Virus record (IMG/VR): IMGVR_UViG_3300028886_000001
Reading direction: 5' to 3' (one strand)
Source: a virus
Lineage: Duplodnaviria > Caudoviricetes
DNA length: 64,000 bases
A program made the position numbers and the translations under genes. Below the pieces are notes generated by a model. That model saw only the letters and a list, made by a program, of their open reading frames with translations, did no database searches and was not told the origin of the DNA. Shown here one piece after another: positions 53,080 to 64,000 of the stretch (within the stretch, counting starts at the first letter, position 1; each line of letters opens with the position of its first letter).

Positions 53080-53209
53080 CTAGTACTTAATTGTACTAGC
53101 TATTTCTTTTGTCTAAGATATATCTCAACATAATACTAAGCCTTATGCATAAGGTGATAATAATATAAAACATAATAGTGAAGTTTTATATATAAAGGAG
53201 GTAATAATT

Positions 53210-55018
53210 ATGTCAGAAGAAATTAAAATGAGAATTACAGACCTTAAAGAAGCTGAAGACGTACAAGGTAGTGATTACCTTTTAGTAGAACAAGCAAAGG
53301 GAAGTAGAAAAGTTAAAGTAGAAGACTTACCTTTCTCTGGTGGTCCTGGTGGAACTGGAAAGCCTGGAAAAGATGGTAAATCTGCTTATCAAATCTGGCT
53401 AGATGCTGGTAATACAGGTTCAGAAGCACAATTCTTAGCTTCATTAAAAGGACCTAAAGGTGATACTGGAGCAGATGGTAAATCTGCTTACGAAATTTGG
53501 AAAGCTGCTGGTAATGATGGTACTGGTGATGATTTCTTAGCTTCATTAAAAGGTAAAGACGGTAAGGATGGTACTGATGGTATCAAAGGTACTGATGGTA
53601 AGTCTGCTTATGAAATTTGGTTAGCTGCTGGTAATGTAGGTAGTGGACAAGATTTCTTAAATTCTCTTAAAGGAGAAAAAGGTGACGCAGGTGAAGCTGG
53701 TACTGACGGAGCTGCTGGTAAATCAGCATATGAAATCTGGAAAGAACAAGAAGGAAATGCTGATAAATCAGAAGAACAATTCTTAGCTTCATTAAAAGGT
53801 GAGGCTGGAGAAGCTGGAGCTAAAGGTGATGCAGGTGAAGCTGGTGCTGCTGGTAAATCAGCATATGAGATCTGGAAAGAACAAGAAGGAAATGCTGGTA
53901 AATCAGAAGCAGATTTCTTAGCTTCTCTTAAAGGAGAAAAAGGTGCTGACGGAGCTAAAGGTGACAAAGGTGATAATGGTGAACCATTTAGAATAGCTAA
54001 GACTTATAAATCTATAGCTGAAATGAATGCTGATCATGATAATGCTGAAGTTGCTGTAAATAGTTTTGTAATAATCTCTACTGATGATGTAGATGATGAA
54101 GACAATGCTAAATTATATGTAAAGACAGAAGAAGGATTTAATATTATAACTGATCTTTCTGGAGCTCAAGGTATCCAAGGTGAAACTGGTCCTCAAGGTC
54201 CAGACGGTAAATCTGTATATCAAGTATGGCTTGATAATGGAAATACTGGAGAAGTAAATGATTTCTTAAATAGTATATCTGGTGGTTCTGTATATGATGT
54301 ATATGTAGAAACTTGCGAAACTGCAGGTACTGAACCATTAAGCAAAGAAGAATGGTTAGTAACAATGAAAGGTCCTAAAGGAGATGCAGGAGAAAAGGGT
54401 GCTGACGGAGCTGCTGGTGAAAAAGGTGAAACTGGAGCTAAAGGTGCTGATGGTCAATCTGCTTATCAACTATGGTTAACACAAGATGGAAATGCTGGTA
54501 AATCAGAGGCAGATTTCTTAGCTTCTCTTAAAGGAGAAAAAGGTGATGCAGGTGAAGCTGGTGCTGCTGGTACTAATGGTAAATCTGCTTACCAAATCTG
54601 GATGGAAAATGGACATGAAGGTAGTGAAACTGAATTCTTAGCTTCTCTTAAAGGAGAAAAAGGTGATGCTGGAGCTAACGGTAATGACGGAGCTGCTGGT
54701 AGAGACGGTACTAATGGTACTGATGGACAATCAGCATATCAAATTTGGTTAGCTGCTGGAAACGAAGGTACTGCATCAGACTTCTTAACTTCATTGAAAG
54801 GTCAATCTGCTTATCAACTATGGTTAGCACAAGAAGGAAATGCTGGTAAATCAGAGGCAGATTTCTTAGCTTCTCTTAAAGGAGAAAAAGGTGATGCTGG
54901 AACTGCTGGAGATATTCCTGTAGCTACTTCATCTCAAGATGGACTTATGAGTTCTGCTAATGTAACTACATTAAGTGCTTTAGCTGAAAATGCAATAACA
55001 ATTGAATATCTTGATTAA
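53210..55018 (+). CDS. Collagen-like fibre protein with GxSAYxIW...FLASLKG repeats
   Basis: Gly-X-Y runs alternating with about a dozen G(K/Q)SAY(E/Q)(I/L)W..G..G....FL.SLKG units; late promoters at 53127 and 53169. Confidence 0.85.
   Translation: MSEEIKMRITDLKEAEDVQGSDYLLVEQAKGSRKVKVEDLPFSGGPGGTGKPGKDGKSAYQIWLDAGNTGSEAQFLASLKGPKGDTGADGKSAYEIWKAAGNDGTGDDFLASLKGKDGKDGTDGIKGTDGKSAYEIWLAAGNVGSGQDFLNSLKGEKGDAGEAGTDGAAGKSAYEIWKEQEGNADKSEEQFLASLKGEAGEAGAKGDAGEAGAAGKSAYEIWKEQEGNAGKSEADFLASLKGEKGADGAKGDKGDNGEPFRIAKTYKSIAEMNADHDNAEVAVNSFVIISTDDVDDEDNAKLYVKTEEGFNIITDLSGAQGIQGETGPQGPDGKSVYQVWLDNGNTGEVNDFLNSISGGSVYDVYVETCETAGTEPLSKEEWLVTMKGPKGDAGEKGADGAAGEKGETGAKGADGQSAYQLWLTQDGNAGKSEADFLASLKGEKGDAGEAGAAGTNGKSAYQIWMENGHEGSETEFLASLKGEKGDAGANGNDGAAGRDGTNGTDGQSAYQIWLAAGNEGTASDFLTSLKGQSAYQLWLAQEGNAGKSEADFLASLKGEKGDAGTAGDIPVATSSQDGLMSSANVTTLSALAENAITIEYLD
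53370..54900 (+). repeat. Internal coding repeats of the collagen-like gene
   Basis: For example aatgctggtaaatcagaggcagatttcttagcttctcttaaaggagaaaaaggtgatgc occurs near 54491 and 54839. Confidence 0.85.
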
Positions 55019-57327: not shown

Positions 57328-58206
57328 ATGAATAGAATATTACATTTATTCGAATGGAGACTAAACGATATTACGAAAGAATTATCAGATATAAAGAATC
57401 AGGGATTTAATTGTATTCAGATATCTCCAATACAACCTTTAAAAGAATACACATATGCATGGTGGTCATTATATCAACCATGTGATTTAACTATTGGTAA
57501 TAGTTGGATAGGTAGTCAAGGAGACTTATCTTTACTATGCAATAAAGCAGAAAACTATGGGATAAAAATAATAGCAGATGTAGTAATATGTCATATGGCT
57601 GGAAAGAACAATGGGGAATTAAAACCACATGAAATGGTGAATAAAGAATTATTAAATAATAAAGACTATTGGTTAGAGCCAAAGATGATAAATGATTGGA
57701 ATAATAGATATGAAGTTACACATTATTCTATGGGACTACCAAGATTAAATATATACAATCATGAAGTACAAGATAAGATAATCAAATTCTTAGATGGTTT
57801 ATATGCTAGTGGGGTTAAAGGGTTTAGAGTAGATGCAGCAAAGAATATAGCATTACCACAAGAAGGATGCGATTTCTATACTAGAGTAATGGATAGATAT
57901 AAAGATCTATTTGTATACTCTGAATTAATATTTACAGATAGACATCTATTAGATGAATACTCTAAGTATACAATGATCCTTACTGAGTCAGAATGTGTAG
58001 ATAATAAGAAAATAGCATATTTTGAATCGCACGACTCTTTCTTAGATGATACTTTAGGATATACAAAGAATATGGATCAGAATAGAGTAATAGATGAATA
58101 CGTAATAAAGTGTAAGTATTTTGATAATACTTTGTTTTATAATAGACCTAATACTAGAATGTATATGGATGGTAGAGTAAAAGCTGCTAATCTAAGGTAT
58201 ATATAA
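57328..58206 (+). CDS. GH13 alpha-amylase (catalytic domain only)
   Basis: ILHLFEW, IQISP, WWSLYQP, IADVVICH, GFRVDAAK, YSEL, ESHD: catalytic D/E/D intact; late promoter 57297..57308. Confidence 0.9.
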   Translation: MNRILHLFEWRLNDITKELSDIKNQGFNCIQISPIQPLKEYTYAWWSLYQPCDLTIGNSWIGSQGDLSLLCNKAENYGIKIIADVVICHMAGKNNGELKPHEMVNKELLNNKDYWLEPKMINDWNNRYEVTHYSMGLPRLNIYNHEVQDKIIKFLDGLYASGVKGFRVDAAKNIALPQEGCDFYTRVMDRYKDLFVYSELIFTDRHLLDEYSKYTMILTESECVDNKKIAYFESHDSFLDDTLGYTKNMDQNRVIDEYVIKCKYFDNTLFYNRPNTRMYMDGRVKAANLRYI

Positions 58207-59230: not shown

Positions 59231-59338
59231 AACATATCATTGAAATTTTATATATAAAGGAGGCAAAGACATATGACTGATACAATTAGAAATGTAAGAT
59301 TAAAAGACAAAGATGGTAATATATTACACCCAGAAATT
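59231..59338 (+). repeat. Fibre-cassette head, copy 1 (late promoter + RBS + MxDTIxNVRLKDxxGNILHPEI)
   Basis: aacatatcattgaaatt(t)tatatata..ggagg plus coding start shared with 61680 and 63166. Confidence 0.9.
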
Positions 59339-59905
59339 GCAGTAGAATATTCATCATCAGCAAATAGTAATAAGCCATTAGCTAATAAGACTATTACTGC
59401 ATTATTATCTGAAAAAGTAAATGCTATTTCCCAAGCAGACTATAATACATTACAAAATAATAATGGTGTAGATTCAACTGTTCCTTATTTGGTGATTACA
59501 GATGAAACATTAGGTACAGAAAAAAAAGCATTATTATATTATAATAATCAGCTTTATAATTTTGCTAATCCATCTACTGAGAGTAATGAAATACAACAAA
59601 AAGTATCTTTAAATGCTACTAAAAATAATAGTATAGAAATAGCTACTGCTGACAGTAATAATAAATTAATGATAGATAATTATAAATTTATCAAAGCTAC
59701 AGAGAATACAACTTCTATTGTAAAGAAATTTAATAATAGTAATAAGGATAATTTTATATATAATCCAGATGAAATAGATTTTAATAATAACAATACTTTT
59801 GTCAAAAATAAATATGTCTATGATGTAAAGATAAATAGTGATGGATTATATGAGAGTGAAGTTATAAATAAAAGTGATTTTTTAGAAATAAGCGAGGTGA
59901 TATAG
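59273..59905 (+). CDS. Tail fibre anchor-module protein (paralog 1)
   Basis: Shared N-terminal MTDTIRNVRLKDKDGNILHPEI; ISQADYNTL...YLVI motif. Confidence 0.7.
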   Translation: MTDTIRNVRLKDKDGNILHPEIAVEYSSSANSNKPLANKTITALLSEKVNAISQADYNTLQNNNGVDSTVPYLVITDETLGTEKKALLYYNNQLYNFANPSTESNEIQQKVSLNATKNNSIEIATADSNNKLMIDNYKFIKATENTTSIVKKFNNSNKDNFIYNPDEIDFNNNNTFVKNKYVYDVKINSDGLYESEVINKSDFLEISEVI

Positions 59906-61576: not shown

Positions 61577-61588
61577 TACAAAAATAAA

Positions 61589-61616
61589 ACAGTATAGGGA
61601 TAAAACCCTATACTGT
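61589..61616 (+). terminator. Intrinsic terminator
   Basis: ACAGTATAGGG-ataaaa-CCCTATACTGT plus T tract. Confidence 0.8.
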
Positions 61617-61679
61617 ATTTTTTATTGTCCATTATATTAAATTATACTAAACGATATACAGATGTTGATGGTGTGTCTC

Positions 61680-61787
61680 AACATATCATTGAAATTATAT
61701 ATATAGAGGAGGTAAAGAAAGATGAGTGATACAATTAAAAATGTAAGACTTAAAGACAAAGATGGTAATATATTACACCCAGAAATT
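61680..61787 (+). repeat. Fibre-cassette head, copy 2
   Basis: Same promoter/RBS/N-terminal block as 59231 and 63166. Confidence 0.9.
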
Positions 61788-63119
61788 ACAGTAGATGTTG
61801 AGCTTAATTCTACTTCTGAGAATCCTGTACAAAATAAAGTTATCAATGCTAAATTAGATGAGGTTTTTCAATCTGTCAGTAATGGTAAAACACTGTTAGA
61901 AACAGCTATTACTGACAAAGGTTCATCTGTTTCTAAAGCTGGAGATGTTGCTACATTTGAAGAATTAAAGACTGGTATAGATAATATAAGTACTGGCGTT
62001 TGTGAATTAAATATATTTACTCAAACAACAGAGCCTGCTAATAAAAAAGGTCTATGGTTAAATACTGATAGTACCTTTAACAGGATAGAAAATTATGCTG
62101 AAGCAACTTATGATAATTTTGCTCAAACTATAAACTATCTTGGATATAATAGTGGATTAGCATTTCAATATTCTAAATCTTGTCAAGTAGGGAAATATTG
62201 TTATATCATTGGTGGAAATGGTATAGCAAAAAGAAATTTAAGATATGATATGGAAACCAAAGAAACATCAACAATGGCAGAACTACCTATGGCTCTAGAA
62301 AAGGGTACGGTTTGTACAGATGGTACATATATTTATATAATGTGTGCATCTGATGATCATAAAACAAATTATAAGTATGATATTGCAGCAAACACATATA
62401 CTACTCTACCAAATGGAGTTAATATAGATAGACCTTCATCACAATGTATTAATAATAAGATATATATATTTGGAAACAATGATGATGCTTGCTATATTTA
62501 TGATTTATCAACAAATACAACAACAAAAATGCCTAATATAACATATAACAATATGATAAATAATAGATCTATAACTGTTGGAGATTGTATATACATCATG
62601 TTTGATTATACTAATACAGGTGCATCATATAAATATGATACTACTACAAATACACTTACAGCATTATTAGCCTCTCCATTAAAACATTCTGGAGATGAAG
62701 CTGCTATATTTGAAAAGAATGGTTATATATATGTATTCTCACATGATAATACAGGTATTAATGGGTCTGCAATAAATGTAATATACAGATATGATATAAA
62801 AAATAATAATTATAAAAAACTAAATAAGACAACAACAAATGATAGAGTTTCTTCTGTTCATTCATATTGTTTCTATAATGAAGTATTAACTTGTTTCGAC
62901 GATTTATCAACTTCTTATTCTACTTTTAATCTGAATAAAAATTGTTTATATTTAGATAAATCTGAAGAAACTAATTCTGCATTATTAGTAGAAACACCTT
63001 ATGATTATTTGAATAAAGAAGAAAAGTTTAAAAACTGTTTCTTAACAGATAGTAATGCTTCTAGGGTTTCTTGTGACTCTTATATAGGCAATGGTACTGA
63101 ATGGACTAAAATATCATAA
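61722..63119 (+). CDS. Tail fibre/receptor-binding protein with C-terminal Kelch beta-propeller (paralog 2)
   Basis: Shared anchor, VDVELNSTSENPVQNKV, EVFQSVSNGK; Kelch blades (CYIIGG..RYD, IYIM..YKYD, IYIFG..YIYD). Confidence 0.8.
   Translation: MSDTIKNVRLKDKDGNILHPEITVDVELNSTSENPVQNKVINAKLDEVFQSVSNGKTLLETAITDKGSSVSKAGDVATFEELKTGIDNISTGVCELNIFTQTTEPANKKGLWLNTDSTFNRIENYAEATYDNFAQTINYLGYNSGLAFQYSKSCQVGKYCYIIGGNGIAKRNLRYDMETKETSTMAELPMALEKGTVCTDGTYIYIMCASDDHKTNYKYDIAANTYTTLPNGVNIDRPSSQCINNKIYIFGNNDDACYIYDLSTNTTTKMPNITYNNMINNRSITVGDCIYIMFDYTNTGASYKYDTTTNTLTALLASPLKHSGDEAAIFEKNGYIYVFSHDNTGINGSAINVIYRYDIKNNNYKKLNKTTTNDRVSSVHSYCFYNEVLTCFDDLSTSYSTFNLNKNCLYLDKSEETNSALLVETPYDYLNKEEKFKNCFLTDSNASRVSCDSYIGNGTEWTKIS
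61862..61936 (+). promoter_or_regulatory. Candidate -1 programmed ribosomal frameshift signal (G_GUU_UUU + H-type pseudoknot), copy 1
   Basis: Slip site 61862-68; S1 61874-85/61906-17; S2 61896-905/61927-36; -1 frame stop TAA 61880-82. Confidence 0.75.
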
Positions 63120-63123
63120 TTAC

Positions 63124-63153
63124 ATACCATGATATCATATGATATCATGGTAT
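63124..63153 (+). terminator. Terminator, perfect 30-bp palindrome
   Basis: ATACCATGATATCATATGATATCATGGTAT then CTCTTTT. Confidence 0.75.
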
Positions 63154-63165
63154 CTCTTTTGTCTC

Positions 63166-63271
63166 AACATATCATTGAAATTTATATATAAAGGAGGCAA
63201 TTAATATGAGTGATACAATTAAAAATGTAAGACTTAAAGACAGAACTGGAAATATACTACATCCAGAAATT
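63166..63271 (+). repeat. Fibre-cassette head, copy 3
   Basis: Same promoter/RBS/N-terminal block. Confidence 0.9.
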
Positions 63272-64000
63272 ACAGTAGATACAGAACTTAATTCTACATC
63301 TGAAAATCCAATACAAAATAAAGTAGTAAAGGCAGCATTAGATGCTGCATATAATCCTACAAATAAAGAGGATTTAAATAAAATAGGGCATGATGAAAAA
63401 GGAAATCTTACTTATAATGAAGTAGTAGTCGGTGGAAGTTCTATTACAGTAGATGCAGAACTTAATTCTACTTCAGAGAACCCTGTGCAGAATAAAGTTA
63501 TCAATGCTAAGTTAGATGAGGTTTTTCAATCTGTCAGTAATGGTAAAACAAGAATAGAAACAGCTATTACTGACATGGGAGGAACTGTTTCTAAAAGTGG
63601 CAGTGTAGCTAAAATAGGAGAATTAATCTCTGGTCTTGCTACAGTAGCATCAGCACAAGCGAATATATTTGTTCAAGAAGCTGAACCAGAAACTAAAAAT
63701 GGTTTATGGTTAAAGACATCTAATACTTATGACGATATAGTAAATATAAGTGGTACAGAAAACACTATTACTTATACTAAAATGACAGACATACCACGTA
63801 ATTTTTGTAATGGTTCTGCTGTAGCTGTTGGTAATGATATATACATTCTTGGTGGTAATGATAGTCCAACTATTAATTATAAATATGATACCACTACTAA
63901 TACTTATACACAAATGACAGGTATACCATATGGATTTTATTATGGTTCTGCTATAGCTATAGGTAATGATATATATTTATTAGGTGGAGCTGATAGTAAT
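63206..64000 (+). CDS. Tail fibre/receptor-binding protein with Kelch repeats (paralog 3; runs off window, not in ORF track)
   Basis: Manual translation MSDTIKNVRLKDRTGNILHPEITVDTELNSTSENP...EVFQSVSNGK...AVGNDIYILGG...YKYD...AIGNDIYLLGG; AAGGAGG RBS; frame open to 64000. Confidence 0.88.
   Translation, partial: MSDTIKNVRLKDRTGNILHPEITVDTELNSTSENPIQNKVVKAALDAAYNPTNKEDLNKIGHDEKGNLTYNEVVVGGSSITVDAELNSTSENPVQNKVINAKLDEVFQSVSNGKTRIETAITDMGGTVSKSGSVAKIGELISGLATVASAQANIFVQEAEPETKNGLWLKTSNTYDDIVNISGTENTITYTKMTDIPRNFCNGSAVAVGNDIYILGGNDSPTINYKYDTTTNTYTQMTGIPYGFYYGSAIAIGNDIYLLGGADSN
63520..63593 (+). promoter_or_regulatory. Candidate -1 programmed ribosomal frameshift signal, copy 2
   Basis: Slip site 63520-26; S1 63532-43/63564-75; S2 63555-63/63585-93; -1 frame stop TAA 63538-40. 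Confidence 0.75.

Follow-up and report, generated by a model that had tools for sequence, protein, structure and literature searches.

Two fibre-like genes near the end of a 64,000-nt stretch of phage DNA (the window) contain the same internal coding segment, which raises the question whether this segment was kept for the protein that it encodes, for the RNA that it forms, or by recent exchange between the two genes. The original prediction was that the segment is a frameshift element present in two copies and that its pattern fits selection on RNA structure better than selection on protein alone, recent gene conversion being one condition that would refute it.

The window corresponds to positions 1-64000 of a 213-kb IMG/VR jumbo-phage record (28% GC, terminal overlap of 109 bp), read on the minus strand. 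Three paralogous fibre-like genes with a common N-terminal peptide (MSDTIKNVRLKD..GNILHPEI) are found there, in a neighbourhood that includes a collagen-like fibre gene, a terminase and an endolysin. Two of them, copies 1 and 3, have Kelch repeats at their C-terminal ends and carry the shared segment, hereafter the cassette. When the record was circularised, the full ORF of copy 3 was 473 aa long; an anchor peptide at its N-terminus is followed by the ITVD.ELNSTSENP.QNKV module in duplicate, the cassette and finally the Kelch repeats. No Pfam match was obtained for the N-termini of copies 1 and 3, and AlphaFold run on copy 1 without an alignment returned a pLDDT of 35.8. The motif region matches phrog_17334, which is found alongside tail-fibre phrogs in cultured homologues, and the cassette homologues phiCT9441A_65 and Abouo gp30 are annotated as tail fibre; homology and context suggest that the cassette genes encode tail-fibre or receptor-binding proteins.

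A promoter-like repeat, AACATATCATTGAAATT(T)TATATATA[AG]AGGAGG, stands directly 5′ of four fibre-like genes. Strong terminator-like hairpins followed by T-runs lie on both sides of copy 1, so that copies 1 and 3 are probably separate transcription units. The propellers of these two Kelch-tipped paralogues have diverged despite an identical C-terminal peptide, YIGNGTEWTKIS, which in copy 3 lies beyond the window. The collagen-like fibre protein (602 aa) is composed of many GKSAY[EQ]IW...FLASLKG repeat units. A gene adjoining that of the endolysin, in the interval that separates the terminase from the fibre paralogues, codes for a protein with an alpha-amylase catalytic domain (Pfam E = 5e-13).

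Coordinates of the two cassettes and of neighbouring features in the window
Feature	Position	Strand	Remarks
Copy 3 slippery heptamer G_GTT_TTT	63520..63526	+	zero frame GAG GTT TTT; A-site tetramer U_UUU
Copy 3 spacer CAATC	63527..63531	+	5 nt
Copy 3 stem 1, 5′ arm TGTCAGTAATGG	63532..63543	+	12 bp
Copy 3 TAA in the -1 frame	63538..63540	+	TCA ATC TGT CAG TAA; ends the predicted 111-aa short product
Copy 3 loop 1 TAAAACAAGAA	63544..63554	+	
Copy 3 stem 2, 5′ arm TAGAAACAG	63555..63563	+	9 bp; abuts stem 1 3′ arm, loop 2 = 0
Copy 3 stem 1, 3′ arm CTATTACTGACA	63564..63575	+	
Copy 3 loop 3 TGGGAGGAA	63576..63584	+	
Copy 3 stem 2, 3′ arm CTGTTTCTA	63585..63593	+	
Copy 1 cassette	61862..61936	+	same parts as copy 3
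Copy 1 heptamer	61862-61868	+	
Copy 1 spacer	61869-61873	+	
Copy 1 stem 1	61874-61885 / 61906-61917	+	12 bp
Copy 1 loop 1	61886-61895	+	
Copy 1 stem 2	61896-61905 / 61927-61936	+	10 bp
Copy 1 loop 3	61918-61926	+	
Copy 1 TAA in the -1 frame	61880-61882	+	predicted short product 53 aa
Fibre-like paralogue lacking the cassette	59273-59905		
Fibre-like gene, copy 1	61722..63119	+	465 aa, Kelch C-terminus; own promoter-like element and terminators
Fibre-like gene, copy 3 (paralogue 3 of the original prediction)	63206..64000	+	continues past the window end
Promoter-like repeat	53169-53204, 59231-59266, 61680-61715, 63162-63191		includes AACA-N6-TG
Terminator-like hairpins with T-runs	61587-61625, 63120-63156		both sides of copy 1
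Internal duplication in copy 3	63269-63344, 63443-63518		ITVD.ELNSTSENP.QNKV..A.LD module
Shared C-terminal peptide, copy 1	63075-63116		
Alpha-amylase catalytic-domain protein	57328-58206		
Collagen-like fibre protein	53210-55018		

In both copies the 5′ arm of stem 2 sits within the loop of stem 1, which corresponds to the layout of an H-type pseudoknot. Stem 1 alone was calculated at -15.7 and -16.8 kcal/mol in the two copies, with z = -5.2 and -4.7 versus shuffles (the shuffle controls, here and below, take no account of the relatedness of the sequences). The claimed identity of the slip site, spacer, stem 1, nine stem 2 pairs and -1 TAA was confirmed to the base (63520-63593 versus 61862-61936), and the variation inside the element is, as had been noticed, confined to the loops: CACTG(T) versus CAAGAA in loop 1, and AAGGTTCAT versus TGGGAGGAA in loop 3. 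A block of 33 nt is identical in both copies and does not occur elsewhere in the window or in the 213-kb genome, which contains two cassettes only. The two copies are most alike, with 100% identity, in the slip site and the 5′ arm of stem 1; identity reaches about 60 nt 5′ of the cassette and drops to the random level about 120 nt beyond this maximum, in line with the downstream loss of similarity first reported. The synonymous differences described just 5′ of the element, gtacaa/gtgcag and aaatta/aagtta, are present as well. The codons described as disfavoured but retained are rare in the genome, where GTC makes up 3.1% of Val, GAC 12% of Asp and GAG 18% of Glu codons. The predicted short product of copy 3 consists of the residues up to F107 followed by SICQ, which gives the expected 111 aa. 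Copy 1 would yield a short product of 53 aa, and the difference is due to the module duplicated inside copy 3.

Two paralogues are insufficient to distinguish selection on the RNA from gene conversion, and homologues were therefore gathered without regard to codon choice. IMG/VR, metagenomes and GTDB genomes were scanned with peptide patterns, and cultured phages were searched by tblastn. A total of 99 distinct sequences with the peptide [LV]F[QT]SVS[NDE]GK-x5-A[IV]TDKG were recovered, on contigs whose GC content spans 26-66%. A second scan, anchored on stem 1 only, yielded 97 distinct cassettes, and the combined set contained 164. Cultured phages gave no match to copy 1 by blastn, nor to the window's own 63-aa motif by tblastn at 1e-3; a main-family query retrieved 10 records by tblastn, and the five cultured phages examined from this search showed the same nucleotides. 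Cultured carriers include Clostridioides pCD1602_4, Clostridium phiCT9441A and Makh22, Brevibacillus Abouo and Davies, Paenibacillus phiERICV and Lysinibacillus phiG2. The part of the homologous proteins that precedes the cassette has a median length of 147 aa, for proteins of about 510 aa. The strict stem 1 pattern was also looked for in 400 genomes sampled from the class to which a C. difficile carrier belongs; the carrier was the only one to have it, and a general chromosomal element was accordingly rejected.

The synonymous-site analysis that had been proposed was performed on the 99 homologues, and near-invariance of synonymous sites was limited to the slip site and the stems. At the slip site, Leu is CTT in 81/81 cases, versus 17% in the flanks, and Phe is TTT in 99/99. 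TCT (96/97), AGT (96/96) and ACT (89/93) are constant or nearly so, as are GTC (93/99, versus 12% in the flanks) and GAC (82/84, versus 28% in the flanks), while Gly and Lys codons within the same 24 codons are used as in the flanks. The cassette forms an island of 63% nucleotide identity over 120 nt between flanks whose identity is at the random level; in two locus pairs the upstream flank is common and the downstream flank is not. As the stems also encode the conserved peptide SVS[NDE]GK..A[IV]TD, RNA and protein constraints overlap. Conservation at the nucleotide level nevertheless tracks the slip site and the stems, which supports selection on RNA structure rather than on protein alone, as originally proposed; with more than 160 distinct homologous cassettes, this proposal now has a basis that the two paralogues could not provide.

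Covariation was then analysed for each stem. In the alignment of 99 sequences, 94.3% of stem 1 cells are paired. At pair 22/51, AU occurs 47 times, GC 33 times, GU 17 times and other combinations twice, and A is never found opposite C (Fisher p = 1e-13), a pattern that is present in each GC3 tertile. At least 8 loci have changed Asp to Gly via GAC to GGC, which preserves pairing as U.G. In one locus (L106) a C-G pair is replaced by G-C and the 3′ arm is in a different reading frame, encoding LLT instead of ITD; in two others (L017, L102) TGTCAG pairs with CTGACA two codons earlier, and another (L050) keeps a 12-bp stem with the same start nucleotide and a different distal partner. In a few variants of the L061 type, only 7 bp of stem 1 are left.

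Among the 12 sequences of the subfamily to which the window belongs, stem 2 is paired in 95.8% of cells, versus at most 49% with a slid partner; three pairs switch between AU and GC or CG on both sides, and one sequence (L155) has a mixed but internally consistent stem 2 haplotype. The whole family, read at the subfamily's columns, is only 50% paired in stem 2. The 3′ arm lies at a variable distance across the family, loop 3 being mostly 9, 12 or 16 nt long, and for this reason cognate and non-cognate duplexes were compared. The loop and its own downstream sequence form duplexes with a mean of -15.7 kcal/mol, versus -9.1 for GC-matched non-cognate and -10.4 for codon-shuffled partners (p ~1e-17), and contiguous helices of at least 7 bp were found in 78/99 cognate versus 23/99 non-cognate combinations. 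This result was replicated on 64 further sequences. Stem 2 comprises 50 different 8-nt arms, each complementary to its own partner, and amino acids are exchanged between the two arms (A-S-A with T-D-A versus A-D-A with T-S-A). The covariation in stem 2 thus indicates that the pseudoknot is real and old.

Both window copies have a spacer of 5 nt, and its length is invariant in alignment A3. In all 164 cassettes the two codons located 5 nt 5′ of stem 1 are either NNT_TTT (145) or NNA_AAR (19), and the slip tetramers are T_TTT in 145, A_AAA in 13 and A_AAG in 6. The P-site codon follows the class, Leu being CTT with T_TTT and TTA or CTA with A_AAR, and Val likewise GTT or GTA. Wherever possible, the preceding base completes a heptamer: T precedes TTA_AAR in 13/13 cases, from Asn, Asp, Gly and Ser codons, for which we calculated a chance probability of 0.38^13 = 3e-6, and G precedes GTT_TTT in 20/20 and GTA_AAR in 4/4. 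A swap between Phe and Lys would be senseless for the protein and fits the Z_ZZN rule of A-site slippage. The -1 stop (TAA, TGA or TAG) is at the same codon in 164/164, 4 codons past the shifted codon; since it lies inside stem 1, its constancy is tied to that of the stem. U_UUY and A_AAR are shift-prone tetramers in E. coli and are also used by IS1 and IS3 elements (PMC4066793). The commonest site, G/A_CTT_TTT (113/164), offers such a tetramer only, with poor P-site re-pairing, and the efficiency may be low, of a few per cent, because tetramers combined with a strong pseudoknot have yielded shifting at 0.26-5.6% in E. coli (PMC4066793).

The locus thus combines a slippery motif, a spacer in the range of about 5-9 nt, a stable structure, covariation and a defined -1 product. 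We infer, with a probability of roughly 75%, that it is a programmed -1 frameshift cassette embedded in a coding sequence of the tail-fibre or receptor-binding type. In the proposed mechanism, the A site would hold UUU (AAA or AAG in other phages) when the ribosome meets an H-type pseudoknot that begins 5 nt downstream, with a stem 1 of 12 bp, a stem 2 of 9-10 bp and no loop 2. The pseudoknot would block translocation and some ribosomes would slip back by one base, translate another four codons ([S/Y]-I-C-Q) and reach a stop inside the 5′ arm of stem 1. Each gene would then give two products, the full-length Kelch-tipped fibre (465 or 473 aa) and a short N-terminal protein (53 or 111 aa). In phiERICV, the gene order is a PF12571 tail-collar anchor, the cassette and a Kelch propeller, so that the short form would be anchor-only. 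It could be conjectured that this form occupies docking sites on the baseplate or sets the number of bulky heads per fibre.

Other known mechanisms were considered and rejected: an intrinsic terminator, because the hairpin lacks a trailing U-run on both strands; transcriptional slippage, because the run is only 4-5 nt long; +1 shifting, because the position of the +1 stop is not conserved; bypassing of the T4 gene-60 type, because the loop is translated and its peptide conserved; and DGR or invertase sites, to which the cassette bears no resemblance.

A conserved pseudoknot in the mRNA could also have a non-recoding role, such as pausing for co-translational folding or trimerisation of the anchor, or mRNA stability or processing, with slippage being incidental; this appears unlikely. 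Conservation and covariation of the two stems demonstrate a structure and not shifting as such, the majority slip site is weak, and the cassette marks a boundary between domains, as in phiERICV, where it follows the PF12571 anchor. Such a role would nevertheless leave unexplained why the codons are always NNT_TTT or NNA_AAR despite the change from Phe to Lys, why the heptamers U_UUA_AAR (13/13) and G_GUU_UUU (20/20) are completed, and why the -1 stop is ever-present.

Two further explanations dispense with an RNA function. The cassette could be a patch of DNA homology serving as a recombination linker for swaps of fibre heads, the hairpin being irrelevant or acting as DNA; the identity island between random-level flanks, the two locus pairs with common upstream and unlike downstream flanks, and the divergence of copies 1 and 3 past the cassette would agree with this. 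However, a homology patch should be uniformly conserved, whereas loop codons are free and stems covary, about 50 stem 2 sequences match only their own partner, G.U intermediates point to RNA, and the F/K alternation at the slip site destroys homology, so that we regard it as improbable, although module exchange may be a side benefit of the cassette. Hardly credible, finally, is an ordinary protein motif made identical in the paralogues by recent duplication or gene conversion, with coincidental stems. The presence of only two copies in the genome, identity reaching about 60 nt upstream and the conserved peptide would be expected in that case; yet rare codons are fixed across 26-66% GC next to saturated codons, stem pairing survives changes of amino acid or of reading frame, and stem 2 covaries. 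As for recent gene conversion, the refuting condition of the original prediction, it is unable to explain the pattern, because conservation spans phages of 26-66% GC with unrelated flanks.

With regard to the spread of the cassette, Lysinibacillus phage phiG2 (L092, gene phiG2_25), a tectivirus, has one with a canonical U_UUA_AAG heptamer, so that the element is present in two virus realms, Varidnaviria and Duplodnaviria. A jumbo phage contig of 256 kb (IMGVR_UViG_3300045988_127368) has at least 4 cassettes (two sites in L197, and L216 and L225); the slip sites read in it, two in L197 and one in L225, all belong to the A_AAA class. Multi-fibre phages seem to place the cassette in several of their fibre genes. 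More tentatively, and with slightly less than even odds in our view, the cassette could be a self-contained portable module whose RNA needs dictate the peptide [LV]F[QT]SVS[NDE]GK...A[IV]TDKG, which has spread across otherwise unrelated fibre and receptor-binding genes in phages of Bacillota, jumbo phages and a tectivirus among them, and which fixes the ratio of anchor-only to full-length protein. If so, it would represent an unrecognised layer of control of virion assembly or host range.

The signal is unannotated: an Rfam covariance-model search (E <= 10) gave no relevant match, a literature search found no paper on this peptide motif or on frameshifts in fibre genes, and 'tail fiber' is absent from the accessible part of the text of a 2016 recoding review. 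More than 160 distinct fibre genes of phages share it at the nucleotide level, and it is a candidate new RNA family with carriers among cultured phages; the conserved 'protein motif' of the fibres would be explained largely as an RNA constraint. Should the shift occur as proposed, a second, unannotated protein would be encoded by hundreds of fibre genes, in phages of Clostridium tetani, Clostridioides, Brevibacillus and Paenibacillus larvae and in the Lysinibacillus tectivirus among others. The signal would then be among the most widely conserved pseudoknot-dependent -1 signals in bacterial viruses and the first one in fibre genes, and it would truncate its product, unlike the known phage structural cases, which are extending.

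Several known systems share part of this design. The dnaX signal of E. coli consists of A_AAA_AAG, a downstream stem-loop and an upstream SD-like element; an upstream SD at a distance of 13-14 nt stimulates dnaX frameshifting. Similarly, an SD-like GAAGGAGC or GAAGGGGC (peptide VEGAL) is found 13-14 nt 5′ of the slip tetramer in about half of the cassette homologues (including L010, L011, L017, L033-L035 and L038) and is absent from window copies 1 and 3. Both dnaX and copA yield truncated products by a -1 shift, and in dnaX tau/gamma, as proposed here, a mid-gene shift with a nearly immediate stop gives a truncated isoform with a common N-terminus (PMC5009743). The cassette differs from dnaX in that its stimulator is an H-type pseudoknot, its site mostly a U_UUU tetramer and its gene a virion fibre. 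A downstream pseudoknot is used by the copA frameshift. In E. coli copA, a -1 shift in a long gene gives a small protein corresponding to the N-terminal domain, CopA(Z), of 70 aa, much like the predicted short form (PMC5009743). However, copA belongs to an unrelated protein family, and the fibre cassette is common to hundreds of otherwise unrelated genes. The lambda G/GT tail assembly chaperone is a further case of conserved -1 recoding in phage tail morphogenesis genes, its product being extended and its gene lying between the tail tube and tape-measure genes; membership of this group was rejected, because the cassette gene encodes a Kelch-tipped fibre-like protein and the -1 frame closes after 4 codons. 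The transposase signals of IS3 and IS1 also use Z_ZZN tetramers (A_AAG, U_UUY, A_AAA) or heptamers with a pseudoknot about 5-6 nt downstream (PMC4066793), but the IS shift fuses two ORFs whereas that of the cassette would terminate. Phage T7 gene 10A/10B, finally, is likewise a phage structural gene, and its shift site has the G_GU form (PMC5009743) seen in the G_GUU_UUU of the window; T7 extends its capsid protein, whereas the cassette would truncate the fibre and has a local pseudoknot.
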